DNA of 64,000 nucleotides from a virus (lineage: Duplodnaviria > Caudoviricetes). Position 1 is the stretch's first letter. Each line of letters begins with the position of its first letter. The notes under the pieces were generated by a model. That model ran no database searches. It saw only the letters and a list, made by a program, of their open reading frames with translations, and was not told the DNA's origin. A program made the position numbers and the translations under genes. Shown in pieces: positions 13,057-28,292 of the stretch. The stretch covers positions 29,466 to 93,465 of the IMG/VR virus record IMGVR_UViG_3300010311_001094. The stretch is one strand, 5' to 3'.

Positions 13057-15168
13057 TCAGATGACCACAAGATCGTGGTCGGGTTCATCGTATACACTAC
13101 CTTGCATCTCGTGGCGAATACAGCGGTCAAGTGCCATGATCCATGCCACGATGCCATCGATTTTCTCTGTACTTTTCTTTTTACTCGGTTTGATGTTTTC
13201 CGCAGCATCGATCTCAGCCACCACATTTCCAGCCATCCAGCGGAGTACAGGGTTGCCGCCGTGGATAAACTGCCCTTCGAGTATAAGCTTGTATAGCTCT
13301 TTCATCGGCGGTGACATATCCTTGAAGCCCATGCCCATCGGGACAACCGTGAAACCGTCACCCTCAAGATCGGTGATAAGTTGTGTCGCATTCCAGCGGT
13401 CGGCAGCAATTTCCTTGATGTTGTACATCGTGTGCAGATCGTTGATCGTTTTCCGCACGAAATTATAATCGACCACATTGCCCTCGGTGATATGAAATAA
13501 TCCCATGCGCTCCCATACATCGTAGGGAACATGGTCTCGCCGTACTCGCAAATCGAGCGTTTCTCTCGGCAGCCAGAAGTGCGGGACAACGATGTATTTC
13601 TCGCCGTCATGCAGCGGAGGGAACACCAGCACAAATGCCGTGATATCCGATGTGCTGGATAGGTCAAGACCTGCGTAGCACTCCCGTCCCCGGAGCTTTT
13701 CGAGGTTGATCGGAAGATTGCCCCTGTCGTAGATATGCTCCGGAATCCATGCCACCGCACTGCCTACCCACTGATCCAGACGAAGCTGACGGAATACGTT
13801 TTCTTCCGCTGGGTTTGTCAGTGCCTCGCGGTGAGCGTCACGCACTCGGTCGATGGTAATGGTGTATCCAAGCGAAGGATTCGCCTTGTACCAAGACTCC
13901 TCGGCATTCCAGTCGTCGCCATCATCAAGTCCGTAGATCACCGGATAAAAGGACGGATCAATGCGTCTGCCCTCCAGAATATCTTTTGCTTTGGTGTGAT
14001 ATTCGTAGCAGATGCTGTTGCGGTCGGTACCGGCGGTTGTGATCAGGAAGTACAGCGGCTGCGTTCTTGCATCGCCGGAGCCCTTCGTAAGAACATCCAC
14101 AAGGCTTCGATTCGGCTGGGCATGAAGCTCATCAAGCACCAAACCGGAAACATTCAGACCATGTTTTGTACCGACCTCCGCTGAAAGCACCTGATAAAAG
14201 CCGACATTGCTGTAATCGACCAGACGCTTTGTAGCCGCCATGATCTTGGAGCGTTTCAGAAGTGCCGGTGTCATCTCAACCATTCTTTTGGCGACATCGA
14301 ATACAATGGATGCCTGCCCACGATCAGCAGCAGCGCCGTAGACCTCAGCAGACGGCTCGTTGTCGGCGTAGAGCAGATACAGTGCAATTGCCGCTGCAAG
14401 CTCACTGTTGTGCGTAGGCACAAACGATGTTCCAGCAAGATATTGATGACTCGGACTATCCACCTGAATACACTGCATTTTCACAGGATGATCCATAGGC
14501 TGGATGTCCAGCAGGTAATGATAACGAGGGTTATTGCCGTGAGAAGCCTCCCAATGTTGCAGAATATCTTTGTTTGATGTCTCGGGGCATTTACTTGAAA
14601 CGATTTTGATATCGGTGTTCATCTCGTAAATCTCACGAGTTGAAACGAGTTTGCCGCTACTATCGATTTCGATGTTCCACAGATGTCGTTCCCCGGCAAT
14701 GATCGAGGTGCCGTCCTTGAAGGTCAGCTTGTAGGCTTGCTCTGTATCATCCACAGGACTTTTCGCAACCACATGGCACGGAATGCCGTTTTCATCAAAT
14801 ACAGTATCTCCGACTTCCAAATCTCCCATATTGGTGAATCCATCAGGAGTCGGAATCGGTGTATCCAGAGCGAGCTGTTTGCCATTTTTCTTGGGTATCT
14901 CGACATAGGCGGTACGAAATTGCCGCATATCGTCCTCTTTGACGATGCCAAAAATATCCCGGATGATCTGTTCCTGCCACGGAAGCAGCCAGAACGGTTT
15001 GCCTGCCCAGCGTCCTTTGGTATGACACAGGTTTTCTATAAAACGCACGGCTCTGTCTGCCTTTGCCGCATCGTAATGGGAATCCGGCAGCATAAACCGT
15101 GTGGGCTTATAGTCTTTCAGTTTCGGATAATTCGCAGGTCTTTCCCTTGCTTTTGCTGTTCTTGCCAT
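13057..15168 (-). CDS. terL: Terminase large subunit containing an intein
   Basis: Walker A IPKKNGK|SEL split by an insert; Walker B VLDELH; ITTAG; GLDLS; KIDG. Confidence 0.95.
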   Translation of the reverse strand: MARTAKARERPANYPKLKDYKPTRFMLPDSHYDAAKADRAVRFIENLCHTKGRWAGKPFWLLPWQEQIIRDIFGIVKEDDMRQFRTAYVEIPKKNGKQLALDTPIPTPDGFTNMGDLEVGDTVFDENGIPCHVVAKSPVDDTEQAYKLTFKDGTSIIAGERHLWNIEIDSSGKLVSTREIYEMNTDIKIVSSKCPETSNKDILQHWEASHGNNPRYHYLLDIQPMDHPVKMQCIQVDSPSHQYLAGTSFVPTHNSELAAAIALYLLYADNEPSAEVYGAAADRGQASIVFDVAKRMVEMTPALLKRSKIMAATKRLVDYSNVGFYQVLSAEVGTKHGLNVSGLVLDELHAQPNRSLVDVLTKGSGDARTQPLYFLITTAGTDRNSICYEYHTKAKDILEGRRIDPSFYPVIYGLDDGDDWNAEESWYKANPSLGYTITIDRVRDAHREALTNPAEENVFRQLRLDQWVGSAVAWIPEHIYDRGNLPINLEKLRGRECYAGLDLSSTSDITAFVLVFPPLHDGEKYIVVPHFWLPRETLDLRVRRDHVPYDVWERMGLFHITEGNVVDYNFVRKTINDLHTMYNIKEIAADRWNATQLITDLEGDGFTVVPMGMGFKDMSPPMKELYKLILEGQFIHGGNPVLRWMAGNVVAEIDAAENIKPSKKKSTEKIDGIVAWIMALDRCIRHEMQGSVYDEPDHDLVVI
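14407..14877 (-). mobile_element. Class 3 mini-intein (157 aa, starts with Gln, no homing endonuclease)
   Basis: QLALDTPIPTPDG...AGERHLW...MQCIQVD...VPTHN|S; W-C-T signature present. Confidence 0.92.
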
Positions 15169-15641
15169 CAGTTTCCTCCCAGAAGTGCATCCATATCGTC
15201 AACGGCAGCGTCCTTCATATCCGCACCTGCGGTGATCCTGCTTCTTGCGGCAGGAGTCAGACCGAACTGCTCTGCGATCTTGTTCATGATCTTCAGATAA
15301 GTTTGCGCAATGGATACCTGCGGAACCTGCTGCCAGTAACCTGATTTTGTTTTTACGATCGTGCCGTGCTGGGTCATGAATTCCTCGGCTTCTTTCCATC
15401 GTGCGTATGCCTGACAGTAGGATGCGAATGCCGCCTGGTCGACCTCGGTCAGCACACCGATCTGTTCCAATTGTTTTGATAACCTGCGCCATTCTTTTTT
15501 GGCTTCCGGCTCCAGCCATTTCGGGCAGGGCGGAGCTTTTTTCGCAGGCTTAGGTTCTGCTTCATTCAGCGGTCGTTTTCCGGGATTGCCTTCCAGTTCC
15601 TTGATTGCTGTGGGCTTGGGTTTTCTGCCCCTCTGAGCCAT
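15168..15641 (-). CDS. terS: Terminase small subunit, P27 family
   Basis: RGRKPKPT..KELEGNPGKR; FGLTPAARSRI. Confidence 0.92.
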   Translation of the reverse strand: MAQRGRKPKPTAIKELEGNPGKRPLNEAEPKPAKKAPPCPKWLEPEAKKEWRRLSKQLEQIGVLTEVDQAAFASYCQAYARWKEAEEFMTQHGTIVKTKSGYWQQVPQVSIAQTYLKIMNKIAEQFGLTPAARSRITAGADMKDAAVDDMDALLGGN

Positions 15642-15789
15642 CCGCATCACTCCTTTTCTCAAAAAATCTGCATAAAGAAAAGGCCTGCGTGCTGCAAGCC
15701 TCTCCTATGTATATCCACCTTGAATTTATATGTGTGTCCGTCTTGGTTTGGATGGGCGGCTTAATGCTACCGCCCACCGACCGTTCTAT

Positions 15790-16018
15790 TTACTTGTACT
15801 CGTACATCAGGATCGCAAGGGCAATCTCCGCAGCCTCGTTTTGCTCGGGTACATCCTCGCCTCTGTCGTAGTTGTAGATGACCTTGCCATTCTCCTTGAG
15901 TGTCAGTTTACTGATTCTGCCCTCGTTGATGCCGTACTGGCTGCCCCCGTCGTAGACCTTTGCCCAGTAGTGAACCACCGTCTTGCCTTCCTTGGTCGGT
16001 GCCAGAATCGTGCCACAT
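15790..16018 (-). pseudogene. Small conserved phage protein (YGINEGRISKL...NYDRG family), frameshifted near the start
   Basis: RBS and ATG at 16018 are out of frame with the gene body; ATG TGG CAC G|ATT CTG fits loss of 8 nt between GGCACGA repeats. Confidence 0.7.
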
Positions 16019-16074
16019 AGTGTTTACCTCGTTCTTTCGTAGTTTTCGGCTCGGTTTCCCGTTCCGTTGTACAC

Positions 16075-16103
16075 ACTATAACTCTTTTCGGCAGATATAT
16101 CAA
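16075..16103 (-). promoter_or_regulatory. Repeated promoter module, copy A
   Basis: TTGATA-N17-TATAGT, upstream TGTACAA-N26-TTCTG, leader ACAACGGAA. Confidence 0.75.
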
Positions 16104-16274
16104 GCGGCTAAACTACCAGAATGTGCAAGGCGATTTTTTGTCGGTTGTTGTACATATTATGCCTTGCCGCAGGAGGCACACAAATGCGCCGTGTGGGCGG
16201 CTTTTCGCAGGGGCAAGCTGTACGCATCTCCCCGGCACCGCCCCACACGAGGCAACGTGGTGCGTGTGTCGTCG

Positions 16275-16454
16275 CTATCCGCCGTACTCTTCCAAGTATG
16301 CGTTCACGCAGTCGCCGTAGCCGAGCTGTTCAAGCTCCTTCGGTTCAAAGACATCCAGCGGCGTTTTCATCACTTCTCGCTCCGTCCATGTTCCCGTGGC
16401 CGACAGGTTTGCGATGACTGCGGTCAGCATTTCAAGCTGTGCGTATGTATCCAT
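16275..16454 (-). CDS. Hypothetical acidic protein, 59 aa
   Basis: GAAGGAGG RBS, begins MDTYAQLEML. Confidence 0.7.
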   Translation of the reverse strand: MDTYAQLEMLTAVIANLSATGTWTEREVMKTPLDVFEPKELEQLGYGDCVNAYLEEYGG

Positions 16455-16516
16455 GTTCTTTCCTCCTTCGGGATTGGCAGCCCCTCCCTGCGGAAGGGCT
16501 GCGCTGTTCCGTTTGG

Positions 16517-16882
16517 TTACTTGCTCTTGCATCCTGCCTCGTAGGTATCCTTGAGGGCGGCTTCCAGCCCCCAGACCGAAACCTCGATGAAGTCCTCGCT
16601 GTCGCAGTGGCGGGCTTCAAGGTCTCCGCGCTCCTGCACCGTGATCAGGTGCTTTGCTGCGATCTCGAAGAGCTGTTTGTCGATGCCTGTCAGCGGATGC
16701 TCGGCTCTGAAAATCTCCTGCTCGGTTTTGGCAAGGGCGGCGTTTGTGTTTGCAAGTGCCTGCGCTCTGCTGATCCCGAAAAGCTCAAGGCAGTCCGCTT
16801 CGGTCATTCCCTCAAGGGCGGCTTTGCCGTTCTGCAGCATCTTCAGCTTGGCAACTGCGGCTTTCATTTCCTTCTTTGTCAT
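16517..16882 (-). CDS. DUF6900-like protein
   Basis: C-terminal LEARHCDSEDFIEVSVWGLEAAL..YEAG. Confidence 0.7.
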   Translation of the reverse strand: MTKKEMKAAVAKLKMLQNGKAALEGMTEADCLELFGISRAQALANTNAALAKTEQEIFRAEHPLTGIDKQLFEIAAKHLITVQERGDLEARHCDSEDFIEVSVWGLEAALKDTYEAGCKSK

Positions 16883-16938
16883 GGTGGTTTACCTCCGTGT
16901 TTTGTATTCGGTGGGCGTTTGCCCTTCCGTTGTGTAGC

Positions 16939-16967
16939 ATATTACCATGATCTTTCCGGAATAGCAA
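16939..16967 (-). promoter_or_regulatory. Repeated promoter module, copy B
   Basis: TTGCTA-N17-TAATAT, TATACAA-N26-TTCTG, leader ACAACGGAAGGGCAAACGCCCACCG. Confidence 0.78.
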
Positions 16968-17147
16968 GCGGCTAAATGTTCAGAACAAAATCGGCGTATC
17001 TGCGCCATTTGTTGTATACATAGCACCAAGCCCACAGGAGGCACACAAACGCGCCGTGTGAGGCGGCTTTCCGCAGGGGCAAGCTTATCGCAGGAAAACC
17101 GCACAAAGGACAACGTGGGGCAAGTCAGCCCCGCAGGGCTGAACCTA

Positions 17148-17531
17148 TCAGTCCTCGGTCGGCGGAAGCCATGCTCCTTTTTCCTCATCGAAAAGGTAGT
17201 AATACGGAATGCCCCAGTCATCGCTCATCAGGGAAACAACGCTCTTGTGGGTGACCGCAGGCTGCATCGGCTCTTTGCGGTCGCGGTGGTAAGCAACCGT
17301 CACACCATCGGCAGGCTTTTCGAAGCTGTGCGGCTCATCCGCATCGGGAGCAAGGCGCTCGCCGAGGATGCTGATGTCTCCAAGGGCAAGCAGTGCCTTG
17401 ACCTTCTCGGCGGTGTTATAATGCTCGGTGAGGATGGGCATCTGGTGTTCGGGGTAGCCGTCCCAATGGCAGTAGATTGTCTCCGTGACGCCGTCCTGAT
17501 GCAGAATTCCGACTCTTGAATTCGTACTCAT
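17148..17531 (-). CDS. Conserved phage hypothetical protein (IYCHWDGYP family)
   Basis: GGAGG RBS; MSTNSRVGI...IYCHWDGYP...LGDIS. Confidence 0.75.
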   Translation of the reverse strand: MSTNSRVGILHQDGVTETIYCHWDGYPEHQMPILTEHYNTAEKVKALLALGDISILGERLAPDADEPHSFEKPADGVTVAYHRDRKEPMQPAVTHKSVVSLMSDDWGIPYYYLFDEEKGAWLPPTED

Positions 17532-17599
17532 GTTCGTAAACCTCCATGTTTTTTTTTCTGCGGTAAGCCCTCCCCGCAGGAAGGGCTCCGCTGTTTTGC

Positions 17600-17920
17600 T
17601 TATGCTCTCTTCACATCGACCAGCCACTCTGCTTCCTTGTGGGCGATGCCCGTAGCCTTCTCGGTAATGCTGCTGTCCTCATCGATGTAATGCAGTCCCT
17701 TGCCGACCTTAACGAATCTCACATTCTCGTAGCCCTCGATGATGGTGCGGTAAACGTAACCGCTGCGGCTCTCGCCATCATAGCTCTTGCCGTCCCAACC
17801 GTTGAAGGTAAAGGTGACACGCTCTGCAGTCTTGCAGAAGAGGCTCTCGAAGTCCTCGCGGGTGATCGCCGTGTTGGCATCAATCAGGTTCAGGCTCTTT
17901 CTCAGTGTGTAGGGGTTCAT
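17600..17920 (-). CDS. Hypothetical protein, 106 aa
   Basis: GGAGG RBS directly behind promoter copy C. Confidence 0.75.
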   Translation of the reverse strand: MNPYTLRKSLNLIDANTAITREDFESLFCKTAERVTFTFNGWDGKSYDGESRSGYVYRTIIEGYENVRFVKVGKGLHYIDEDSSITEKATGIAHKEAEWLVDVKRA

Positions 17921-17975
17921 GGTGTTATCCTCCGTTTCGTTTTTCGGTAGGCGTTCTGCCCTTCCGTTGTGTCAC

Positions 17976-18004
17976 ATATTACCATGATCCTGCTGATAAG
18001 TCCA
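17976..18004 (-). promoter_or_regulatory. Repeated promoter module, copy C
   Basis: TGGACT-N17-TAATAT with extended TG, same leader hairpin. Confidence 0.72.
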
Positions 18005-18122
18005 CGCCTATGTGCAAAATAAAACGTAGAAGAATCGCCGATCTCAGCCTTTCGTATTGTAGGATTTACACATGAGGAAAAGGGGGAGGGGGAGCAGAGC
18101 CGAAGCCCTGCTCCTGTCGATA

Positions 18123-18593
18123 TCAGTTCACCTTGAAAAGGATGCCCTGTGCCGTTTCGTATTCTTCCTCGCCCCAGCGCAGGCTCTTCTTGGTGATGGT
18201 GTGCGTTCCGACCATCGTGCAGCCTTCTGCAATAAATCCGTAGATGTTCTCCATCAGCGCCGTGCTCTGATTGGTGATCGTGAACTCGGTGATGCCTAGC
18301 TTGCGGAGCGTTTCGATGAAATCGTGGAATTCCTTGTCCCAGCAGTAATCGCTCATCTCGAACTCGTCACCGTCGTTCTCGCGGCGCATCTTGTACACCC
18401 AGTAGGCTTTCATCTCACCGCCGCTGTAGGGGTAAGGACCCGCCGCCTTCTCCTCAGCGTACCAAGCGTCCATCTCCGGGCTGTCGTAGCCGTGGGCTTC
18501 GGCAATCTGAGCCTTGCGCTCGGCGCGCTCCTTTTTGGCGCGTTCATAGGCGGCGCACTGGAAGGTCATCTCCTCAAAGTAGCTGTCGTTCAT
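18123..18593 (-). CDS. Conserved hypothetical protein (DUF7698-like)
   Basis: GGAGG RBS; LRKLGITEFTITNQSTALM...GCTMVG. Confidence 0.72.
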   Translation of the reverse strand: MNDSYFEEMTFQCAAYERAKKERAERKAQIAEAHGYDSPEMDAWYAEEKAAGPYPYSGGEMKAYWVYKMRRENDGDEFEMSDYCWDKEFHDFIETLRKLGITEFTITNQSTALMENIYGFIAEGCTMVGTHTITKKSLRWGEEEYETAQGILFKVN

Positions 18594-18651
18594 GTTCGTA
18601 TCCTCCATGTTATGAATTCCGGTGGGCTGTCTGCCCCTGCCGTTGTGTAGC

Positions 18652-18680
18652 ATATTACCATGATCCCGGCGATATGTCCA
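18652..18680 (-). promoter_or_regulatory. Repeated promoter module, copy D
   Basis: TGGACA-N17-TAATAT; upstream about 40 nt nearly identical to copy C. Confidence 0.75.
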
Positions 18681-18851
18681 CGCCTATGTGCAAAATAAAT
18701 CGTAGAAGAATCGCCGTTTTCAGCAAGCTGAACAGGTACATATACACAAGCCCACAGTTTGCGCCAGAACGCGCCGTGTCACGCCCGGAAAGTGGGGGAT
18801 AAGTTATCCCTGAGAATGCGGAAAGGGGCTGTAATGCCCCTTTATGTCGCC

Positions 18852-19055
18852 TTATTCGTCGTTGTACTTCTCGTGGATGATGCCGAGGATCTTGTCCTGT
18901 TCCTCGATGCTGATGCCCATGCTTTCGAGTGCCTCCCTCGTGCCGCAGTCCGGGCAGATGATCGTGTCGTTGTCGTAGCGGGATAGGGCAGGGCGCTCGG
19001 TGTAGGTGCGTCCGCATTTCGGACATGTACGCTTTTCAAAAACTTGTTCTTTCAT
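18852..19055 (-). CDS. Zinc-ribbon protein
   Basis: CPKCG...PALSR..N...ICPDCG. Confidence 0.75.
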   Translation of the reverse strand: MKEQVFEKRTCPKCGRTYTERPALSRYDNDTIICPDCGTREALESMGISIEEQDKILGIIHEKYNDE

Positions 19056-19057
19056 TT

Positions 19058-19519
19058 TCAGTCCTCCTTTGTGCTTCTCATGTATGCCCTGTCAAGGTAC
19101 TTCAAATCAAATCCGAAGTTGCGGTAGCCTTCCTCGCAGGTGCGGATGTAGGTCATTGACGGGATCGCAATCTCACGCTCCTCGTGCATGATGTAGACAA
19201 ATGCCGTGACCTTTTTGGTCTTGCCGTTTGCCAGCCTGATTGGCAGGCGGACTTCCTTCTTGTAGTAGAAGTTCGGGTAGCCCTCGTAGATGTCGAGGTG
19301 CTTCTCATCGTCGGCTGTCACTTCCCACACGGCGACCGGAACAAGCCCGCCGTCCTTCGGCTCGATGGTGAGGTACGCTCCCGTCTTGCTGCCCTTGAAG
19401 AGCAGTTCGTAGTCAGGAATCGCGGAAATGCCGATGGGCTTTGCGCCTGGGCAGCGGAATCGCATCTGGCGGATGTTGAGGTTGCTGCCGTAGGCTATGT
19501 AGTATTTTTTCTTGTTCAT
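19058..19519 (-). CDS. Gamma-glutamylcyclotransferase (AIG2-like) family protein
   Basis: YIAYGSNL; LDIYEGYP. Confidence 0.9.
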   Translation of the reverse strand: MNKKKYYIAYGSNLNIRQMRFRCPGAKPIGISAIPDYELLFKGSKTGAYLTIEPKDGGLVPVAVWEVTADDEKHLDIYEGYPNFYYKKEVRLPIRLANGKTKKVTAFVYIMHEEREIAIPSMTYIRTCEEGYRNFGFDLKYLDRAYMRSTKED

Positions 19520-19558
19520 GCTATGTTCTCCTTTGCGTTTTTTCCTTGCGGTAGTGCT

Positions 19559-19587
19559 ATGTTAACTCATTTCGGCGGCATTATCAA
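19559..19587 (-). promoter_or_regulatory. Repeated promoter module, copy E
   Basis: TTGATA-N17-TAACAT; TGCACAA-N26-ATCTG. Confidence 0.7.
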
Positions 19588-19852
19588 GCGAGTAAATGAA
19601 CAGATCATCGAGGGCGATTCTGTGCCGTATGTTGTGCATTTTATGCCTTGCCTACATTTGCGTTGTGTGGCGCGGTTGACTGAGATGGGATACCGATTCG
19701 GAGGATACCCTTTCCGCCCCACACGGGGGTGCGGGTTGCCAGTGGCAACCTCTGCGAAGCAGAAGCACCGACCGAGGCGAGAGCCGAGACCGTGGCGGCT
19801 GTGTGCGCCGCCGTGCCGTTCCGCTTGTTCTTCCGCCCCGAAGGGCAGGCCT

Positions 19853-20797
19853 TTAAGATCTGCCGAAGCGGAAGCTGTTGTCGCCCGTAAGATTCTCAGT
19901 GAGGACCTCTCTCGCCGTTGCGAATTCATCCCCGATGAATCCCATTCTCATCAGCCAAGTCCGCATGGCGAACTTTTTGTTTTCCTTCTGCTGTTCCTTG
20001 GGGCTGGCGCTCCGCAGGTCCTTTGCCATCTGGCTCATTGCGAGGCAGAGCTGAATGTAGCTCTTGAGCTTGCCTGCGTGGAGCCCGTTCTGCTTGCCGT
20101 TGGAAGGCGGTGCGAACTGGAAAAGTCTGAACTCGACCGTGCCTTTGGTGAAGGTAGCGTGGAGGTTGAGCATGTGATAGCGGCTGTCGTTGTAGTGGTG
20201 GGTTCTGCCGTATTCGCAGCCCTGTGCGCCGTACCAGATGTCCGCAAGCTGTGCCATCGTGGTGGGCTTTTTGCGGTTGAGCTGTTCAAGGAATCTCGGG
20301 TCAACTGTTCTGCAGTAGCGGCGCATTCTGCTCTGGTCTACTCTGATTGCCTCGGCGATCAGGGTTTCGTGGCTTGCCATCAGGTTTGCGAGGTTTCTCA
20401 AGGTCTGCGGTGTGTGTCCCTGGGCTCCAATGTGGCAGTGGACTCCACATCCCCGCGTGTAATCACTGCGCGCTCCTGCCTTCCTGAGCTTTCTCACAAG
20501 CTCCTGCAGGGTTTCGATGTCTGCGTAGTGCAGGATCGGTGTGACCAGTTCGCACTTTTCGCTGTCGGGGCCTGCGATGCTGACGTCCTTCTGGAATTTC
20601 CACTCGCGTCCCTGTGCATCCCATGCGCTGTAGGTTTCGTAGCCGTTGCGGTGTGCGGTGTACTCGGTGCGGCCGGTGCCGAAGAAGTCGGCGGCGAGCT
20701 TTGCGGCAGCCTTGCGGGTGATGTTGTTCATCTCGATCTCCACCCCTATCGACTGCTCCTTCGTTCTGCTCTGCTGCTGTGCGGTCTTCTCAGTCAT
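19853..20797 (-). CDS. Putative amidoligase (COOH-NH2 ligase type 2)
   Basis: IGVEIEM, DVSI, ELVTPIL, CGVHCHI, RYHMLN, TVEFRLF. Confidence 0.88.
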   Translation of the reverse strand: MTEKTAQQQSRTKEQSIGVEIEMNNITRKAAAKLAADFFGTGRTEYTAHRNGYETYSAWDAQGREWKFQKDVSIAGPDSEKCELVTPILHYADIETLQELVRKLRKAGARSDYTRGCGVHCHIGAQGHTPQTLRNLANLMASHETLIAEAIRVDQSRMRRYCRTVDPRFLEQLNRKKPTTMAQLADIWYGAQGCEYGRTHHYNDSRYHMLNLHATFTKGTVEFRLFQFAPPSNGKQNGLHAGKLKSYIQLCLAMSQMAKDLRSASPKEQQKENKKFAMRTWLMRMGFIGDEFATAREVLTENLTGDNSFRFGRS

Positions 20798-20852
20798 TTT
20801 TGTATCCTCCGATTCGGTTTTTCGGTGGGCGTTTGCCCTTCCGTTGTGTCAC

Positions 20853-20881
20853 ATGTTACCGTCTTTCGGAGGATATAGCAA
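20853..20881 (-). promoter_or_regulatory. Repeated promoter module, copy F
   Basis: TTGCTA-N17-TAACAT, leader ACAACGGAAGGGCAAACGCCCACCG identical to copy B. Confidence 0.78.
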
Positions 20882-20942
20882 GCCGCTAAAACCACAGAAT
20901 ATCGAGGAAAATACATTGCGCATATCTGGTGTATGTGTACAC

Positions 20943-20971
20943 TTGATATCCTTGAAATTCTATGGTATACT
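20943..20971 (+). promoter_or_regulatory. Divergent promoter, back-to-back with copy F
   Basis: TTGATA-N17-TATACT with extended TG. Confidence 0.55.
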
Positions 20972-20994
20972 CGGATACAATGGAATAGGCTCTT

Positions 20995-21243
20995 CTATTT
21001 TCCGGGGCCCCCATTGCGGTCAGAAATGACCTGGAAATCATCCACGCCTTCTATAAGGGAGAGCGTTCTGCCGTTCTGCCAGACCATGTGTATGTTGCCG
21101 CCGTCATCGACCATCTGAACCTCGCCGATTGTTCCGGGCGGCACTGGTGCGTAGGGATCGTCCATGTGCTTCAGTCGGATAAGGGTGCCTTCGGGATAAC
21201 GCTCCCGCAAGGCTCTGAGCTGTCGTTCATTCGGAAACTGCAT
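20995..21243 (-). CDS. DUF4314 family protein
   Basis: YPEGT.IRL..MDDP...PPGT.GEV..VDD.G.IH..W. Confidence 0.85.
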   Translation of the reverse strand: MQFPNERQLRALRERYPEGTLIRLKHMDDPYAPVPPGTIGEVQMVDDGGNIHMVWQNGRTLSLIEGVDDFQVISDRNGGPGK

Positions 21244-22135
21244 TGTTCTCTTCCTCCTCGTTCTGTTCTTCTTTGGCAACATCACGCTTTGCCTTCTGCT
21301 TTGCCTCCCAGCGTTCACGCTCCTCATCGTTGCGGAATGCGGTGTGTCCGGAAAGCGGAGCCATGAGGCGCTTGCGGTCAACCTTGAAGTCAGCACCGTT
21401 CAGCCCAAGGCGGATCAGCCAGATGCGGAGTGCGTACTTTTCGTTGCTGTCATCGACATCCTTTGCTTGCACACGTTTCTGCGTGATCGCCATCTTGTTC
21501 ATAGCTGCGGCGAGCTTGGTGAAGGTCTTCACCGTCTCGGCATCCTGTGCTGCACCGAAGCCGTCAAAGATCAGTTTGTCATCGGCGAAACGGATGCCCT
21601 TCAGTTCGGGATTCGTTTCCTCCCATACTCTGATGTAGGCGATAAGCTCGTGGATGCTGCGGAAGGTCTTGTCATCGAGGATCGCATCGGCGAGGCTCTT
21701 GTCTGCGAAGAACTGTCCGCCGGTCGCCTTGCTGAGAAGTGCGCCGCGGGAGTGGATCATGCAGATAAGGTTTGTAAGGCTCTGCACCGTGTGCTCTGCA
21801 ATCGGGAAGCTGATGCTTGCGAGCAGCGGAAATCCGCTGCTCGGTTCGTCAGGGATATCCGGCTCTGATTCAGCCGAAGCATCCGTTTCTTCCGGCGGTG
21901 CTACTGTTTTGCTTTCATATCCTGCCTCTGCAAGCCCATTCAGTACCTTCTCTACGATATCTGTGTCGATGCGGTCGCTGAAACTGAGGACTGCGTTTTT
22001 GTCCAGGGTGAAGAAGTCGATCTGGTATCTGCAGCCCGGTACACCGAGGTACTTGACCTCTGCTCCTGTCAGCTCGCCGATTTTCTGTGCCAGTGCCTTG
22101 CGCTGGCTCTTTTCAATATTGAACTTGATTTCCAT
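21227..22135 (-). CDS. Conserved prophage protein (family often labelled virulence-related)
   Basis: RKALAQKI...YLGVP; C-terminal NEKYALRIWLIRLGL...LSGHTAFR. Confidence 0.75.
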   Translation of the reverse strand: MEIKFNIEKSQRKALAQKIGELTGAEVKYLGVPGCRYQIDFFTLDKNAVLSFSDRIDTDIVEKVLNGLAEAGYESKTVAPPEETDASAESEPDIPDEPSSGFPLLASISFPIAEHTVQSLTNLICMIHSRGALLSKATGGQFFADKSLADAILDDKTFRSIHELIAYIRVWEETNPELKGIRFADDKLIFDGFGAAQDAETVKTFTKLAAAMNKMAITQKRVQAKDVDDSNEKYALRIWLIRLGLNGADFKVDRKRLMAPLSGHTAFRNDEERERWEAKQKAKRDVAKEEQNEEEENNAVSE

Positions 22136-22203
22136 ATGATTACCTCCGTTTTTACTGCCGCCCCTCAGCCTTGTGCGTTGGGCTGCGGCGTTTTCGTAGT
22201 CAC

Positions 22204-22232
22204 ATATTACCGTCTTTTGCCCCGGAATGCAA
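22204..22232 (-). promoter_or_regulatory. Repeated promoter module, copy G
   Basis: TTGCAT-N17-TAATAT; TGCACAA-N26-TTCTC. Confidence 0.72.
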
Positions 22233-22367
22233 GACTGTAAAACGGAGAATGTACGGGGCGTGTCTGCCCTTTAGATTGTGCATAGTACAGAATAGAAAGA
22301 AGCCCTGCGGCAGAACATCTGATTTAGTATCAGAATGTTCACAATTTGCTGCATGGCTTCTTTATTA

Positions 22368-22706
22368 CTATTTCTTTTTCGGTGCGAAAACCCTGACCGG
22401 AACGTGCTGTTCCCGGCAATGGTCTATCACATATTTCGTGCCGCGTGACTGTCCGTCCCAGAATGCCAGCACCACATCTGCATAGGCGATAATCTCCAGA
22501 TTCCGTTTCAGCGGGGCGCTTCGTCCGAAGCGTTCATAATCCGGCAGAAATTCCTTCAGCGGAATGCCGTGTGCCTTTGCGTATGCCCGTGCATCAGAAT
22601 CAATACCCCTCGCTCCTCCGCTGACGATCTCTGTGATACCCTCCGGCAGATACCGTTCAAGGTCATTCACATGAAGTCCTCGTGAGCCAATAATTGCTAT
22701 TTTCAT
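22368..22706 (-). CDS. SLOG-family (YspA/DUF2493-like) protein
   Basis: IAIIGSRG, IVSGGARGID, RN, AFWDGQSRGT. Confidence 0.85.
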   Translation of the reverse strand: MKIAIIGSRGLHVNDLERYLPEGITEIVSGGARGIDSDARAYAKAHGIPLKEFLPDYERFGRSAPLKRNLEIIAYADVVLAFWDGQSRGTKYVIDHCREQHVPVRVFAPKKK

Positions 22707-22819
22707 ATCGTGCAACTCCTTGTAGATATATTTTAGATACAATTTATATCCATTTCAAACATTATACCACAGAATAGGTCTAAAATAAAGTCATAATATA
22801 TCTGAAAGGAATTCGTTTT

Positions 22820-23023
22820 ATGGCTATCAAAAGTGTATCCATCCGCATTGAACAGGAGATGCTTGATAAACTTCACGTTGTTGCTGACTACGAAGGTCGT
22901 TCTGCCAACAGTCAGGTTTTGATCCTGATCCGTGATTGCATTGAAAAATATGAGGAAAAGCACGGAAAGATCGAGCTTGGCGGAGACAAGAAATCCGAAA
23001 TAAGTGTATCTCATCGGCACTGA
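22820..23023 (+). CDS. Arc/ribbon-helix-helix DNA-binding protein
   Basis: SVSIRI ribbon, ADYEGRSANSQV. Confidence 0.85.
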   Translation: MAIKSVSIRIEQEMLDKLHVVADYEGRSANSQVLILIRDCIEKYEEKHGKIELGGDKKSEISVSHRH

Positions 23024-23076
23024 ACCGACGCAGGTTCGTCTTTTTCCGATGCTTTCAAAACGGGCGCGTTATGCGT

Positions 23077-25248
23077 TCACTTTTGTGTATCTCTCTGCGC
23101 CACCCAAGCGATACCCGAAAGCACGAAGTATGGAATCGGCAGTGAGATCCCGTTGCCCCACAGCTTGTACTCTGCGGAATCCGTGTAGGGATCAGCAAGC
23201 CATTTCCTGATTTGCTTTTCAGTTTTCGGTTTTCCCTTGGGGTTTGTGACCCGCCGCCATGTCTCCCAGACCTCCGTCCAGAAGGTGATCTTCTCATCGG
23301 TCGGATCGGGAATCGCAAGGTCGGCACACCACCAGTCGGGGAATCCCTGCAATCTGGCGCACTCCACCGGAGTCAGACGACGAACGATATATACCGGCTC
23401 GTCATTCGGAAGGTCGTTCACAAGCGGAGGATCCTTCCAGTCGGATGCGACCAGCGTGTTTGCCTGTTCATGTGCGGCGACTGTGTGGTGAGAATTCTTG
23501 CTTGTGCTGTAGTGATCGGCATCCGGTGCTGCGACAGCATGCCTGTCTGTTGTGTTCAGCGTAAAGCACACATCTTCATTGATACCATCACCCTGCGGTC
23601 CGTTCTGATCGGCGCGACCGATCATCGAGCCTTGCAGTGCATAGGTCTCCTTCTCGGCTACCACAACAGCCTGCTGATTGTCTCCGGCATTTGCACGGAG
23701 CGTGCCGCTTTTGCCGTCACTGTATACATGACCGCCGATACGGGATGCCGCCCCCGGTTCGAGAGCCACCACCGCAACTCCTCCGTGATTGCTGTCCGGG
23801 TTCGCCTCGCTCGTATCAAGGCATCGGGAAATGTCTGTCGGGTAACAATGCCCACGAGCATTTTTCGTGCCGTCCGATGTGAAACGCACATCGAAGGTCT
23901 CCGGTGCAGGTGCTACCACGCAGATGCCGCCCTGATTCGATGTCACAGAATTTCCACCACTTCGGTCGAGCGTTCTGCTTGTGGTCGCCTCATAGAATCC
24001 GCTGTGCGGATTGTCGGACATCATCGCATTGGAATGCTTGCTGCATACACCGAAGGCTTTGATCTCTGGCTGAAAGAGTGTCTGGTCGTTGTTGGTAGCA
24101 AGCGTAGCAGATTTATCAGTTTGCCAGAGAGCGCCCTTGCCGCCGCCTTCGCAGCCTGACCTGATTTTCAGCGTGATCGGTTCAGCGACAAGCGGTACAT
24201 TGTTGCCGCCCGTCCCGGCTCTGCTGCAAAGTGTCTGGCAGGTGTCGTCCTCACGGATCTTCACCCGACCGTCCGTCGGATGGTTTTCGACCGAGAGTGC
24301 GGCGGGAACAACTCCTGCCCTCAGTGTCGGGGAGACTTCCTCCTCGTATCCGATGCTGCGTGCTTTGGCACTGTGTTCTGTGGAGAATCCCGCCGCATGA
24401 AGTACCGCCGGATGGTTGCCGTGATCCTGTGCGACCAGTGCGAGAGCCTTGTTCTCGGTGATGCCGACGCCGCTGTTGCCCTGTGTATTCAGGCAGAGGG
24501 TTCCACCTCCAGCGTCAGACCGCCCGCCTGTCTCTCCAGTGCCTTCTTCAGCACCTCCGGCAGCTCCTTGCCACGCACGGAAGCCCTGCGGAGTATACCC
24601 AGACACGCCTTCGGACTTAAATAGTATTTCTCCGGCACTTCCGCCAGCAAAATCTGCGACAAGGTAGATTCTTGCTCTGCGTTGGGGGACACCCCAGTAT
24701 TGAGCATCGAAAACTCGGTAAGCCACGCTCCATCCGTCTCCCAGATACACGTCTGATTTTGCCCATCTGTGATTTTCAGGCGCAGGCACCTCGATCCCTT
24801 TTTCTTTAACTCCGATAACTGCTTCGAGGACAGCCTTGAAGTCGTTTCCTCCGTTGGATGAGAAAGCGCCGGGGACATTTTCCCAGACGCAGTATCGCGG
24901 ATATCGTCCATTTGTTGCATCCCTCATTTCTTTGATGATGCGGATCGCCTGAAAGAACAGGTTCGACCGATCACCGTCATGGATTCCGGCACGCTTGCCC
25001 GCAATAGACAGGTCCTGACAAGGACTGCCTAAGGTGATGATATCCACCGGCGGAAGCTCTGCGCCGTTTAGCGTAGATACATCACCGTAGTGCTGCACCT
25101 GCGGCAGCCGCTTGTGCGTGACAAGCACCGGAAAAGGTTCAATTTCGCTGCTCCACCTTGGCTCGATCCCTGCGAGGATGCCACCAAGCGGAAAGCCCCC
25201 GGAGCCGTCAAACAGGCTGCCGAGGGTCAAGTGTTTCTTATCCATCAT
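23077..25248 (-). CDS. dcm: DNA (cytosine-5) methyltransferase with expanded variable region
   Basis: SLFDGSGG, GSPCQD, ENV, QRRAR, RRLTPVECARLQGFP, GNG; AAAGGAGG RBS before 25248. Confidence 0.93.
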   Translation of the reverse strand: MMDKKHLTLGSLFDGSGGFPLGGILAGIEPRWSSEIEPFPVLVTHKRLPQVQHYGDVSTLNGAELPPVDIITLGSPCQDLSIAGKRAGIHDGDRSNLFFQAIRIIKEMRDATNGRYPRYCVWENVPGAFSSNGGNDFKAVLEAVIGVKEKGIEVPAPENHRWAKSDVYLGDGWSVAYRVFDAQYWGVPQRRARIYLVADFAGGSAGEILFKSEGVSGYTPQGFRAWQGAAGGAEEGTGETGGRSDAGGGTLCLNTQGNSGVGITENKALALVAQDHGNHPAVLHAAGFSTEHSAKARSIGYEEEVSPTLRAGVVPAALSVENHPTDGRVKIREDDTCQTLCSRAGTGGNNVPLVAEPITLKIRSGCEGGGKGALWQTDKSATLATNNDQTLFQPEIKAFGVCSKHSNAMMSDNPHSGFYEATTSRTLDRSGGNSVTSNQGGICVVAPAPETFDVRFTSDGTKNARGHCYPTDISRCLDTSEANPDSNHGGVAVVALEPGAASRIGGHVYSDGKSGTLRANAGDNQQAVVVAEKETYALQGSMIGRADQNGPQGDGINEDVCFTLNTTDRHAVAAPDADHYSTSKNSHHTVAAHEQANTLVASDWKDPPLVNDLPNDEPVYIVRRLTPVECARLQGFPDWWCADLAIPDPTDEKITFWTEVWETWRRVTNPKGKPKTEKQIRKWLADPYTDSAEYKLWGNGISLPIPYFVLSGIAWVAQRDTQK
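24489..24911 (-). CDS. Nested alternative-frame C5-MTase beta-like polypeptide
   Basis: GAGGG 9 nt before ATG 24911; STLSQILLAEVPEKYYLSPKACLGILRRA resembles the segment normally in-frame in C5-MTases and M.EcoHK31I beta. Confidence 0.7.
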   Translation of the reverse strand: MDDIRDTASGKMSPALSHPTEETTSRLSSKQLSELKKKGSRCLRLKITDGQNQTCIWETDGAWLTEFSMLNTGVSPNAEQESTLSQILLAEVPEKYYLSPKACLGILRRASVRGKELPEVLKKALERQAGGLTLEVEPSA

Positions 25249-25453
25249 CCGCCTCCTTTGCGTTCCTGCACAGATTGAGGAAGTCCTCCCTGATCTGCTC
25301 TCTGTAAGCCATCGCCACCGCAGGAATCTCGTGTGTATACACCGGTCTGCCGATAAAGCCGGAAAGATAGTCATACAGATATTTCAGATCATCGCCCTTG
25401 AGCATAGAAATCTCTGTGTAAGCGGTCACGACCGCGCATTCATGCTTCGTCAT
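25238..25453 (-). CDS. Hypothetical protein, 71 aa
   Basis: Overlaps both neighbouring MTase genes; GRPVYTHE motif. Confidence 0.7.
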   Translation of the reverse strand: MTKHECAVVTAYTEISMLKGDDLKYLYDYLSGFIGRPVYTHEIPAVAMAYREQIREDFLNLCRNAKEADDG

Positions 25454-26225
25454 CGGTATCCTCCCCAAGCATCAGTTCACAGGCTTTATTATAAAAATCC
25501 CGGCTGACTTCAAAGCCGTAGCTGTGTCTGCCAAGCTCCCTCGCCGCACGCAGCGTTGAGCCGGAACCGGCGCAGGGATCGATGACCACATCACCCTCGT
25601 CGGTAAATATCCCGATCAGACGTTTCAGTACGGAAATCGGCTTCTGCGAAGGATGTATCTTCGGGATATCCTTGCCGTCCCGCATCCAGTCAAAATGGTC
25701 GAAGATCATGTGCCTCTTGCCGTATGCATCGGTATTGCGGAACTTCGGCAGCTTTCCCCGATACAGCACCAGAGCATACTCCGTTGCGCCCACGATCCTC
25801 ATGTTCGCCTTCAGCACCTGCGGACTGTAATTCTTCATAAAGCACAAAAACTGATACTTCTTGAAGCCGTATTTCTCCGCCTGCCGGATGACCTCGGGTA
25901 TCTGCTGAAAGGCACAGAATACGATCATGCAGGGAGCATCCTTCTCACCTTTGGACGGCTCCTTTTTGAGCAGCCGGTTACAGAAGGCGAAGTATTCAGC
26001 GATGTTGAAGGTGTAATCCGTGTGGAATGCAGCCTTGTGCGCTTTGCTGCTTTCACCGTTCTGATTGTCACCGTTCACATACCAGTCGGGACGGGATGCG
26101 TAAAAGTCCCCGCCGATATTGTAGGGAATGTCTGCGATGACGAGTTGTGCTTTCGGAATGCAGTAGGATTTGAAGTTCTGGAAATTATCGTGATACAGCT
26201 CACATTTCACATCAGCCATCGACAT
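25440..26225 (-). CDS. DNA N6-adenine/N4-cytosine methyltransferase (beta class)
   Basis: IADIPY, HPSQKP, DPCAGSGST. Confidence 0.88.
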   Translation of the reverse strand: MSMADVKCELYHDNFQNFKSYCIPKAQLVIADIPYNIGGDFYASRPDWYVNGDNQNGESSKAHKAAFHTDYTFNIAEYFAFCNRLLKKEPSKGEKDAPCMIVFCAFQQIPEVIRQAEKYGFKKYQFLCFMKNYSPQVLKANMRIVGATEYALVLYRGKLPKFRNTDAYGKRHMIFDHFDWMRDGKDIPKIHPSQKPISVLKRLIGIFTDEGDVVIDPCAGSGSTLRAARELGRHSYGFEVSRDFYNKACELMLGEDTDDEA

Positions 26226-27015
26226 CCTCCAGTCTCTTTTTCAGCGCCTTGCGGAATTCCTTGGTGCCGAGCTGATTTCCGTCCGTCTGCCATTCCAGTT
26301 CAAAATCAAAACGAGCCTCCAGTTTCCGGACTGACCATCCGGGCTTGAAGGTGCGCCATGTTGCATCATCCCATGCTCTGAGCTGTTTCCAGAGATCAGG
26401 GAAATCGAAATACAGAATCCGCAGCTCGTTCAGCGGCTGCAGCGGACAGCACCAACAGGATACTCGTCCGAACTTCTCATACAGACCGCCCCAGTCGTAG
26501 CCGCGTTCCTTGCAGTATTGCAGGCAGTCGGCTTCGGTCATGCCCCACTCCACAAGCGGCAGCCGGACCTTCGGTCGGCTGTTGCACTTGTGCGTGATGC
26601 GCTCCGTCTCATCGGCGGCGATGCCGATGTACTCGATCACCGTGTACTTCTTTCGCAGTTCGCTGAGGAATTTCTCACGGGGTACTGTTTTCAGAAGATT
26701 GGTACACCACCGCATCAGCGGTCCCGCCCAACTGTATCCGGTCTTGCCGCGCAGTTCCGGCTTTTTCCGTTTGATTGGCTTATGGAGCATGAGATATTCA
26801 AAGGTATATTCGCTCTTGACAGTCGTAACCTTCATGCCGGTATCCTGTTCGACTTTGTGTACATGGTCATACAGTGCCGGGAATTCTAATCCGGTATCGC
26901 AAAACAGCACCAGATCAACCTGCATTCCCATTTCTAACATCTTCAGGAGCATCGCAGTGCTGTCTTTCCCGCCGCTGAAGGAGACCACATGAAGCAGAGG
27001 TTTCAGTTCACCCAT
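26212..27015 (-). CDS. PAPS reductase-family (PP-loop) protein
   Basis: SFSGGKDS, DTG.EFP, RWCT..LK, RVSCWCCP. Confidence 0.88.
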   Translation of the reverse strand: MGELKPLLHVVSFSGGKDSTAMLLKMLEMGMQVDLVLFCDTGLEFPALYDHVHKVEQDTGMKVTTVKSEYTFEYLMLHKPIKRKKPELRGKTGYSWAGPLMRWCTNLLKTVPREKFLSELRKKYTVIEYIGIAADETERITHKCNSRPKVRLPLVEWGMTEADCLQYCKERGYDWGGLYEKFGRVSCWCCPLQPLNELRILYFDFPDLWKQLRAWDDATWRTFKPGWSVRKLEARFDFELEWQTDGNQLGTKEFRKALKKRLEDVDG

Positions 27016-28291
27016 TCGTATCACCACCCTCTGCTGTCGGCATCGCTGCCACCGCTTCATCGAAGGAAAGCTTCTGTCCGTCACGGATGACATACACATC
27101 ATCGTACTTGCCCTCGCGGAATTTGATATACCGCTTCACTTGAACGTCCACAAACTTTTCATCCAATTCTACAGCTCTGCATTTTCGGTCGAGCTGTTCA
27201 CAGGCGATCATGGTAGAACCGGAACCGTGGAAGCCGTCCAGCACAATGCCGTTTGTCATGGTGGACTGCTTGATGAGATATGCCATCAGCGGTACAGGCT
27301 TTGCAGTCGGATGTCCCTCACCCTCGGCTTTGGAGCTTTTCGGACGGTCGAAGTCAAAGCAGGTGGTCTGCTTACGGTCACCGTACCATGTGTGCTTGCC
27401 GTCCTTTTTCCAGCCGTAGATCACAGGCTCGAAGTTCTGCTGATAGTCCGTCCTCGACAGCACAAGCCTGTCCTTGCGCCAGACCAATCCGCAAGAAACA
27501 CGGAATCCGGCATCCTCGAAAGCGTCATAGAACACCCTCGATTTTGATGTCGCGTAGAAAACATACACCGCAGAATCATCTGCAAGGTTCTCTTTGAAAC
27601 AGGCAAATGCGCTTTTCAGGAATTCATAGCCTTCCTTATCCGAAAGGTCATCGTTCTTGATGCTGCCGGAGGTATTGCTGTATGCTACGAGGTACGGCGG
27701 ATCGGTCAGCAGGAGATTTGCTTTTTCACCGTTCATAAGCAGCTCGTAGGTTTCCGACTTGGTGCTGTCACCGCAGACGATACGGTGCTTGCCCAGAATC
27801 CACAGGTCACCGAGTTTTGAGAAGGTCGGCTGTTTCAGCTCTTCTTCAATATCAAAGTCATCTTCCTTGATGTCTTTATTGTGTACCTGATTGAAAAGCT
27901 GCTCGATCTCCGGCGGATCAAAGCCGGTCTTTCCGAGGTCGAAGTCGCTGTCCTGAATGTCCTGCAACAGTTCAGCCAGAAGGCTCTCGTCCCATGCGCC
28001 GGTGATCTTGTTGAGCGCAATGTTCAGCGCCTTTTCTCTGACCTTGTCGATGTCCACCACCGCACAGGGTACCTCGGTGTATCCGAGCGCCATCGCTACG
28101 GTCAGTCGCTGATGCCCGCCGATGATGGTCATGTCGGCGTTGACTACCAGCGGATCGGCAAAGCCGAATTCCTCGATGCTGTTTTTGATCTTTTCGTATT
28201 CCTTGTCGCCGGGCTTCAGCTTTTTGCGCGGGTTATATGCCGCAGGCTTCAGCTCCGTGACAGGGATCACACGAAGTTCTGCTGTCTTCAT
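27008..28291 (-). CDS. ParB-like N-terminal domain fused to DNA N6/N4 methyltransferase
   Basis: YNPR...GF..P...IIGGHQR; TDPPY; HPTAKP; DGFHGSGST. Confidence 0.9.
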   Translation of the reverse strand: MKTAELRVIPVTELKPAAYNPRKKLKPGDKEYEKIKNSIEEFGFADPLVVNADMTIIGGHQRLTVAMALGYTEVPCAVVDIDKVREKALNIALNKITGAWDESLLAELLQDIQDSDFDLGKTGFDPPEIEQLFNQVHNKDIKEDDFDIEEELKQPTFSKLGDLWILGKHRIVCGDSTKSETYELLMNGEKANLLLTDPPYLVAYSNTSGSIKNDDLSDKEGYEFLKSAFACFKENLADDSAVYVFYATSKSRVFYDAFEDAGFRVSCGLVWRKDRLVLSRTDYQQNFEPVIYGWKKDGKHTWYGDRKQTTCFDFDRPKSSKAEGEGHPTAKPVPLMAYLIKQSTMTNGIVLDGFHGSGSTMIACEQLDRKCRAVELDEKFVDVQVKRYIKFREGKYDDVYVIRDGQKLSFDEAVAAMPTAEGGDTNG

Positions 28292-28292
28292 C

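Follow-up and report, generated by a model that had tools for sequence, protein, structure and literature searches.

The 64-kb window analysed here, the whole stretch of DNA to which all positions refer, is part of a 93,465-nt IMG/VR provirus record (IMGVR_UViG_3300010311_001094) and carries an array of small gene cassettes, each of which stands behind a copy of one repeated module that combines promoter, leader hairpin and ribosome binding site (RBS). We assign the window to a temperate provirus of the 'Ca. Heliusvirales' type with hosts among Ruminococcus/Clostridiales. Among deposited genomes the closest, with ~70% identity over parts of the array, come from human-gut phages that carry the label 'Ca. 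Heliusvirales', and multi-copy matches in genome collections came from Ruminococcus and Clostridiales metagenome-assembled genomes, some of them from the rumen; single-copy pattern matches in viral and genome collections were mostly due to chance and were disregarded.

Genes of the array and its surroundings

Pfam searches with the open reading frames (ORFs) of the window gave a temperate-phage layout with genes mainly on the minus strand. A CI/S24 repressor, a sigma-like factor, a DUF2800 nuclease, a family-A polymerase (PolA), an SNF2 helicase and a D5-type primase are followed by MetK, HNH, NrdD/NrdG and DNA-modification genes, the array, terS, terL, the portal gene, a group II intron and the capsid gene (Table 1). 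The sigma-like protein is likely a late-gene activator. As an earlier note, made from the sequence of this window, had proposed, one or two genes lie behind each module. Of the three array ORFs without a Pfam family, one matches PHROG 1987, a group of unknown function, and two had no match in any library, while searches of array genes with PADLOC and NCBIfam returned no match; an anti-defence role of the array genes is possible but unsupported. The head of the array is formed by an AT-rich insert (22368-23030) with two divergent genes, one YAcAr/SLOG-like (22368-22706, minus), the other for an Arc-like ribbon-helix-helix (RHH) protein (22820-23023, plus).

Table 1. Genes, modules and hairpin elements in and around the cassette array (window positions)
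Feature	Position	Strand	Details
terS	15168-15662
Array	22372 down to 15790		between DNA-methylase block and terS
Cassette A	15790-16018	-	DUF7678; then GC hairpin (~15715-15745), then terS
Module A, subtype ii	16016-16154	-	distal TGTACAA 16148-16154; -35 TTGATA 16098-16103; -10 TATAGT 16075-16080; leader ACAACGG and two-tier hairpin, then RBS; start codon 16016-16018
HP element 5' of module A	16185-16267	-	83-nt imperfect hairpin
Cassette B	16275-16882	-	DUF6900 (16517-16882) and 60-aa ORF (16275-16457)
Module B, subtype i	16880-17018	-	GGCG-N6-CGCC small hairpin with T-rich tail 16992-17007; -35 TTGCTA 16962-16967; extended -10 TAATAT 16939-16944; leader hairpin; start codon 16880-16882
HP element 5' of module B	17048-17130	-
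Cassette C	17148-17920	-	106-aa ORFan (17600-17920) and 127-aa PHROG 1987 protein (17148-17531)
Module C, subtype iii	17918-18072	-	upstream block TTTATTTTGCACATAGGCGTGGAC; -35 TGGACT 17999-18004; -10 TAATAT 17976-17981; leader hairpin; start codon 17918-17920
Cassette D	18123-18593	-	DUF7698
Module D, subtype iii	18591-18753	-	-35 TGGACA 18675-18680; -10 TAATAT 18652-18657; start codon 18591-18593; nearby terminator-like hairpin (~18825-18850) after upstream stop codon
Cassette E	18852-19519	-	GGACT/AIG2-like gamma-glutamyl cyclotransferase (19058-19519) and 67-aa zinc ribbon (18852-19055)
Module E	19517-19656	-	-35 TTGATA from 19587; -10 TAACAT; start codon 19517-19519; promoter part homologous (profile positions 9-106); leader short, without ACAACGG or hairpin
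Cassette F	19853-20797	-	Amidoligase_2 (PF12224, E 1.6e-55)
Module F	20795-20932	-	-35 TTGCTA 20876-20881; -10 TAACAT 20853-20858; ACAACGG leader; start codon 20795-20797
Cassette G, gene 2	20995-21285	-	DUF4314
Cassette G, gene 1	21227-22135	-	302 aa; PHROG 2443, middle part of 'amidoligase enzyme' family profile
Module G	22133-22303	-	-35 TTGCAT 22227-22232; -10 TAATAT 22204-22209; start codon 22133-22135; promoter part homologous; 5' hairpin different, longer
Four DNA-modification (methylase) genes	23077-28306
Module H	28635-28789	+	-35 TTGCTA 28703-28708; -10 TAATAT 28726-28731; leader hairpin; start codon 28787-28789
Gene behind module H	28787-28975	+	62 aa; converges on nrdG
Sigma-like factor, Xpf-like	45993-46859		288 aa; region 4 alone recognisable; Pfam Sigma70_r4 5e-8; NCBIfam PRK06930 'positive control sigma-like factor' 1.6e-8
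CI-like helix-turn-helix/S24 repressor	50656-51579	+	Pfam

The repeat unit and its promoter

The eight -35/-10 pairs of the earlier note were all recovered, at 16103, 16967, 18004, 18680, 19587, 20881, 22232 and 28703, each with the 17-nt spacer that had been given for it; one correction concerns module H, which lies on the plus strand, inverted relative to the array. A profile hidden Markov model built from 83 related copies and run against positions 14001-30000 found exactly these eight sites (E 6e-8 to 4e-41), modules E and G in their promoter halves only, and the 21-nt core motif gave 2 matches at <=3 mismatches compared with 0.00 expected. The ACAACGG leader is present in the six modules for which it had been described (A, B, C, D, F and H). 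TRYACAA-N26-(T/A)TCT(G/C) likewise occurs in the five expected modules (A, B, E, G and H) and is absent from C, D and F, and the upstream block said to be common to C and D extends over 90 nt at 89% identity.

Alignment of the copies from the window and its relatives gave the order of the parts from 5' to 3' and revealed a repeat unit larger than the promoter module originally described. Often it begins with a short GC hairpin directly after the upstream stop codon; such post-stop hairpins lie behind cassettes B, C, D, E and G. Then follows the element HP, with a fixed length of 83-85 nt, whose ends GCGCC...GGCGC and YGTGTGGGG...CCCCACACG are able to pair, leaving a conserved bulge of 9 nt (ACGTTCGCC) and an apex that varies. 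A linker with the end (C)ATAATATGTACAA leads to a 4-5-bp GGCG-N6-CGCC hairpin with a T-rich tail and to an upstream sequence that distinguishes the subtypes, (T)TCTGTACATTTAGCCGC in subtype i, TGCACATTCTGGTAGTTTAGCCGC in subtype ii and TTTATTTTGCACATAGGCG in subtype iii. This upstream block is AT-rich (GATTTTGTTCTGTACATTTAG) in a genome of 50% GC, and its end, TTTAGCCGC, adjoins the -35 hexamer. The promoter itself (TTGMTA, a 17-nt spacer, often TG, and TAATAT) is followed by AC(A/T)AC and a two-tier hairpin, and the unit closes with an A-rich spacer of ~15-20 nt, GGAGG and the ATG.

The 83 unique modules have the hexamers, 17-nt spacing and TG of sigma-A/sigma-70 promoters, as would be expected if they were read by host RNA polymerase (RNAP), which the earlier note had claimed. 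The -10 is TAATAT in 75 of them, and the hexamer exactly 17 nt upstream is TTGATA or TTGCTA in 61 and TGGACT or TGGACA in 13, with TG at -15/-14 in 53. Subtype iii has a -35 region unrelated to that of the other subtypes and the same -10 and leader. All 83 have ACAACGG starting 4-5 nt past the -10; since the usual distance from a -10 to the start site is ~7 nt, we infer that the transcripts would carry 0-3 nt ahead of the paired part of the leader hairpin.

Inside the upstream block of module F, and back to back with its promoter, lies an antisense promoter of the sigma-A type (20943-20983, plus; TTGATA-17-TATACT with TG, then ACAATGG). It points into the DUF4314 gene, has no plus-strand ORF behind it and may give rise to an antisense RNA. 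It is kept in relatives and, in diverged form, in Ruminococcus phage NatCom_23091 (L002, ~8000-8110, minus).

Conserved pairing in the leader and in HP

Folded one by one, 59 of the 61 unique leader variants adopted the same outer CGG:CCG stem and inner GC stem, and the mean minimum free energy was -10.1 kcal/mol, compared with -3.4 +/- 2.4 for shuffles. The proportion of paired cells in the MAFFT alignment is 90.6%, compared with 14-49% in slid controls; G-U pairs also occur. The best covariation came from NatCom_23091, whose outer stem reads CCG:CGG, a flip of CGG:CCG, or CGC:GCG and whose two-tier shape is kept. Because this shape persists through the stem flips, and on the strength of the folds and the pairing, we take the leader hairpin to be a genuine feature at the RNA level. 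Stem-loops that stabilise mRNA from its 5' end occur in Firmicutes in the SP82, ermC and aprE leaders, and by analogy the most economical assumption is that the leader would act as a 5'-terminal mRNA-stabilising stem-loop. HP, in turn, is a conserved inverted repeat, with 85.8% of the cells pairing, against 30-66% in slid controls, and one pair with nine double changes; it may end transcripts, be a processing site or be bound by a protein. An Rfam search of the array gave no match at the gathering score, nor any with E <= 1.

One module, different genes behind it in related phages

The exact core pattern occurs in 2-7 copies per locus in 36 IMG/VR loci, and the profile search raised the count to as many as 12 modules per locus. 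Calling and clustering the ORFs downstream placed 18 unrelated gene families, most of them DUFs or ORFans, directly behind the module, in agreement with the proposal that different genes follow the same module. Gene content and order are not invariant among the relatives, and the idea of a cassette-like array survives this comparison: the array comprises ~6 to 14 cassettes of differing content, and the slot occupied by the GGACT gene, DUF7698, family 20 or family 16 varies between phages. Moreover, one gene family can stand behind different module subtypes, and four families are found sometimes with a module ahead of them and sometimes without. Agathobacter phage NatCom_13861 carries the orthologues in close succession and without any module, at gaps of -34 to 93 nt compared with 197-333 nt here.

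Diverged modules are present in NatCom_23091 (PV036433.1; human gut) at 8048-8196, 9255-9396, 10210-10365 and 11242-11388. They were detected by the profile search only, a blastn search with a module against deposited phage genomes having given no match. The distal motif reads TACACAA or TGAACAA in a diverged relative. Some short 'hypothetical protein' coding sequences annotated in NatCom_23091 (e.g. 10071-10286 and 10283-10372) overlap modules and are probably not genes.

Indel junctions in the modules

The earlier note had proposed the repeats as a route of cassette gain and loss, and the alignments of close relatives support this, with indel junctions lying in module repeats and cassette homology ending inside modules. 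The window and the related locus L038 align collinearly, with 96.5% identity, as far as the HP of module A, and the alignment resumes 1.3 kb later in L038, an indel of two cassettes. Here, 78 nt of the window match both L038 copies; the crossover lies within HP (GCCCCTGCGAAAAGCCGCC / CACACGGCGC). A scan of all close pairs yielded 11 distinct indels, 4 of them outside the array, in packaging and structural genes, and 7 within it. Four of the seven have a module repeat of 34-99 nt at the junction, two have a junction inside a module, and the last, described below, is illegitimate. The modules together with 150 nt upstream make up ~20% of the loci; because the sample is small, the enrichment of junctions in modules is suggestive rather than proven. 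In the mobile family-20 cassette, homology between contexts starts ~45 nt 5' of its module and runs ~30 nt into the module that follows; in other families homology ends at the stop codon or within a module.

Regulation of the array

One proposal of the earlier note, a fixed N26 dyad bound by a single regulator, was not supported. TRYACAA and WTCTS are not reverse complements, and the constant spacing reflects ungapped homology of subtypes i and ii, subtype iii being spaced otherwise. What every subtype does contain are two TGYACA-type hexamers, a distal ATGTAC(A/C) and a proximal TGYACAT, which resemble the CI half-site TGCACA and lie 27, 36 or 48 bp apart depending on the subtype. They raise the question of a dedicated-regulator regulon, in which the modules would be operators of one phage repressor or activator that binds the upstream block (the TGYACA sites and TTTAGCCGC) and switches the array together, much as the L5 repressor does at its stoperators and the phiC31 repressor at its conserved inverted repeats. 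Such a regulon would account for conservation that, in subtypes i and ii, reaches ~75 nt 5' of the -35 with the spacing held constant, for the retention of TTCTG..TTTAG even in the diverged NatCom_23091 modules, and for an Arc-like RHH gene (Pfam Arc E 1.9e-5) that is kept at the array head in four related loci. We nevertheless consider it unlikely: the two conserved blocks do not form a dyad, the distances between the hexamers show no helical phasing, the near-consensus -35 and extended -10 need no activator, and repeated recombination alone can keep the flanks alike. No shared regulator of the modules was found among the candidates, and neither putative operator in the window occurs in the array modules, as detailed below.

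The first is the operator-like palindrome GCACA-N5-TGTGC, which was found only twice. One copy, GCACATTCTTTGTGG (50448-50462), lies in the spacer of a minus-strand early promoter (TTTACA-17-TATAAT) beside the repressor gene, and a perfect second copy, placed between module H and the DNA-modification operon (GCACAAAGAATGTGC, 28653-28667), is kept in five related loci. As the full CI-type palindrome is absent from the array modules, the array promoters look independent of CI, and a CI-type repressor-operator regulon was rejected. The second is TAGATA-N5-TAGATA in the promoter region shared by the YAcAr/SLOG-like and Arc-like genes, a likely operator of the Arc-like protein, which is also absent from the modules. 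The 62-aa protein encoded behind module H, considered as a further candidate regulator, has a predicted small beta-alpha-beta-beta-alpha fold (pLDDT 88) and few homologues, and a structure search with it gave no match with E < 0.1. Counts of TGTACA, GATC and GTAC were uninformative. As a separate observation, the second GCACA-N5-TGTGC copy suggests that the repressor also controls the methylase operon.

The phage itself encodes a sigma-like protein with a region 4, and the modules might accordingly be middle or late promoters read by this Xpf-like factor (Table 1), by which the array would be turned on with, or just before, the packaging genes. Module A is in fact the nearest promoter 5' of terS, no other promoter-like site being present in 15663-15790, and TTTAGCCGC might extend the -35 to which it is adjacent. 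However, hexamers, TG and 17-nt spacing all conform to the housekeeping sigma-A type, which suggests independence from the sigma-like factor; the -10 and leader of subtype iii are the same as elsewhere despite its unrelated -35 region; and a better candidate for a phage-specific promoter class exists in a two-copy repeat at 33385-33446 and 45931-45992. Control by the sigma-like factor is thus very unlikely in our judgement. The two copies of that repeat, which is unrelated to the modules, share 84% identity over 62 nt and contain ACGCTATATAGTAGAGG; one lies directly 3' of metK and 5' of the HNH gene, the other directly 3' of the sigma-like gene, and they may represent a separate promoter/RBS class.

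With regard to timing, the apparent independence from CI and from the sigma-like factor weakly points to expression immediately on DNA entry and/or constitutively, in the manner of morons, from the prophage. The array abuts terS, and if a cos or pac site lies there, that end would be packaged last and injected first, as in cos siphoviruses; for this reason we lean slightly, and speculatively, towards expression on entry.

A model of autonomous, recombining cassettes

The module family, the variability of the genes behind it, the junctions in the repeats and the conserved hairpin pairing all emerge from comparison between phages. We regard it as probable that the array is a hyperplastic accessory region, in a temperate Clostridia phage, of autonomous cassettes that are expressed by host RNAP and serve as recombination substrates as well. 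In the mechanism we propose, HP (83-85 nt), often together with a small GC hairpin with a T-rich tail, would end or insulate upstream transcription. The AT-rich block ending in TTTAGCCGC and the promoter TTGMTA-17-(TG)nTAATAT would then recruit host sigma-A RNA polymerase without phage factors. Transcription would start inside AC(A/T)AC, giving an mRNA with 0-3 free nucleotides ahead of the two-tier hairpin, which could act as a stabiliser against RNases that depend on the 5' end, and the unpaired GGAGG would drive translation of the one or two genes. Finally, because 150-250 nt of near-identical sequence recur every 0.5-1.3 kb, homologous recombination between modules could delete, insert and relocate cassettes, making the array integrase-free and homology-driven.

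Several points weigh against this model. Promoter activity, start site, timing, termination and the stabilising role are all deduced from sequence, and the conservation of TTTAGCCGC, ACAACGG and the distal ATGTACAA goes beyond what a promoter needs and could reflect either a further regulator or gene conversion. Stretches of ~130 nt upstream that contain HP fold no better than shuffles (z -0.5 to -1.8), strict covariation is thin, with 2 pairs each in the leader and HP alignments, and RNAalifold returned no consensus structure from the MAFFT alignments of the leader or of the upstream block. Most of the hairpins lack a clear U-tract, which makes their role as terminators uncertain. Furthermore, shared cassettes mostly keep their order, indicating turnover by indels more than free shuffling, and not all of this turnover passes through modules: a 611-bp deletion that distinguishes L014 (3640-3700) and L087 from the window (16429-17040) is illegitimate, with TGC microhomology only. 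Lost with it are the promoter of module B, the DUF6900 gene and the 5' part of the gene that follows, of which a promoterless fragment is left.

Some of these same points would fit an array with no dedicated function, in which the modules are selfish or neutral 'mobile promoter' remnants, duplicated and homogenised by gene conversion, and the hairpins by-products of GC-rich inverted repeats. The non-significant fold z-scores of the HP-containing stretches, the scarcity of strict covariation inside the close lineage and the existence of related phages that carry the same genes without modules agree with this explanation. It is hardly probable, in view of the fact that modules are always oriented so that -10, leader and RBS stand at a fixed distance from the start codon, that the leader hairpin survives complete flips of its stem in the diverged lineage, and that the modules are more conserved than the genes behind them. 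Returning to autonomous, recombining cassettes, we hold the repeat unit to be a real and well delimited feature whose role in recombination the comparative data support and whose role in expression is a prediction.

Taken together, these elements could be joined in a wider and, as it stands, doubtful scenario, in which a standardised, self-propagating unit of insulator hairpin, host promoter, 5' stabiliser and RBS, evolved in one lineage of temperate Ruminococcus/Clostridiales phages, builds an integrase-free, homology-driven array at the cos/terS end of the genome. As the last part to be packaged, this end would probably be the first to be injected, so that each counter-defence or host-takeover gene could be transcribed once its own few hundred bases have entered the cell, and a common factor would recognise the hairpin of 84 nt as well as the upstream block.

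Relation to known systems

The closest described system is that of the promoter-early stem-loops (PeSLs) of T4-type phages (Arbiol et al. 2010, PMC2839356; Comeau et al. 2014, PMC4122927). A PeSL combines a stem-loop with a promoter of the sigma-70 type and its AT-rich upstream region and reaches as far as the Shine-Dalgarno (SD) sequence and start codon of the gene behind it. PeSLs are concentrated in hyperplastic regions, ahead of ORFans, and give rise to indels through recombination (PMC2839356, PMC4122927). Excised mini-circles, from exchange between neighbouring copies, are a further trait of the system. The modules resemble them by analogy, not by membership. Shared traits are a promoter of sigma-70 consensus with an AT-rich upstream region, a small repeated composite unit that ends at the SD and start codon of the next gene, a hyperplastic region directly 5' of ORFans, with all array copies between the methylase block and terS, and indel or replacement junctions in the repeats among close relatives, seen here in the four events with module repeats at the junction. 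Possible counterparts of the PeSL stem-loop, a terminator or attenuator, are HP, by its pairing, and the small GGCG hairpin with T-rich tail; fold z-scores of the stretches that contain HP are not significant. Unlike the lytic T4-like myoviruses, the phage described here is a temperate, siphovirus-like Clostridia prophage with a CI repressor. Its module is several times longer and has no sequence relationship to PeSLs; the main hairpin lies 90-170 nt 5' of the -35, whereas that of a PeSL lies within or overlaps the promoter, and a conserved 5'-terminal leader hairpin is added.

Other systems share single aspects. Morons of lambdoid phages, in the concept of Juhala and Hendrix, are self-contained blocks of promoter, gene or genes and hairpin between conserved phage modules. 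The cassettes are like them in having their own promoter and a post-stop hairpin and in being absent from some relatives; morons are individually unrelated, whereas 7-12 units per genome share one promoter-leader module here. The host-takeover early region of SPO1 and SP82 consists of many short operons with strong host-sigma promoters, intercistronic structured RNAs and a 5' stabiliser stem-loop. The array may be compared with it as a cluster of small genes, each with its own host-type promoter, and with structured elements between the cistrons, but those phages are lytic, their region lies in the terminal redundancy, and their elements have been shown to be RNase III sites.

With integrons the array shares a linear arrangement of small, variable and mostly unknown genes separated by imperfect inverted repeats of ~60-140 nt. 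It differs in that every cassette has its own -35/-10, whereas integron cassettes share one Pc promoter, and in that attC core sites are absent and junctions are homologous overlaps of 34-99 nt or microhomology; a Pfam search of all flanking ORFs, which found methylases, the YAcAr-like and Arc-like genes, terS and terL, detected no integrase. In L5, with its stoperators, and in phiC31, with its conserved inverted repeats (CIRs), a short motif that matches the operator of the immunity repressor is repeated at many promoters and intergenic sites. One short motif repeated across a temperate phage genome is common to both cases; the difference is that the CI-type palindrome is not found in the array modules.

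In a limited literature search, no account was found of repeats of this kind in Heliusvirales or in any other temperate phages of Firmicutes. Where the papers found describe modular shuffling by composite promoter-terminator repeats, it is for lytic T4-like phages of Gram-negative hosts (PMC2839356, PMC4122927), and the independent origin of the same logic in a widespread order of gut and rumen phages suggests a general route of accessory-gene turnover. As a marker, the module flags the 18 mostly unknown families as candidates for host-takeover, counter-defence or lysogenic conversion. The predicted combination of promoter, 5' stabiliser and RBS in one short natural unit could also make it useful for Clostridia genetics.

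Two further features were noted outside the array. A protein with a PemK/MazF-like toxin domain (37359-37853, E 1e-21) is encoded between the primase and the SNF2 helicase in the replication module, and the group II intron amid the head genes (8974-10874) comprises an ORF for a reverse transcriptase/maturase/HNH protein (9084-10874) and an Rfam Intron_gpII match at 8974-9070.

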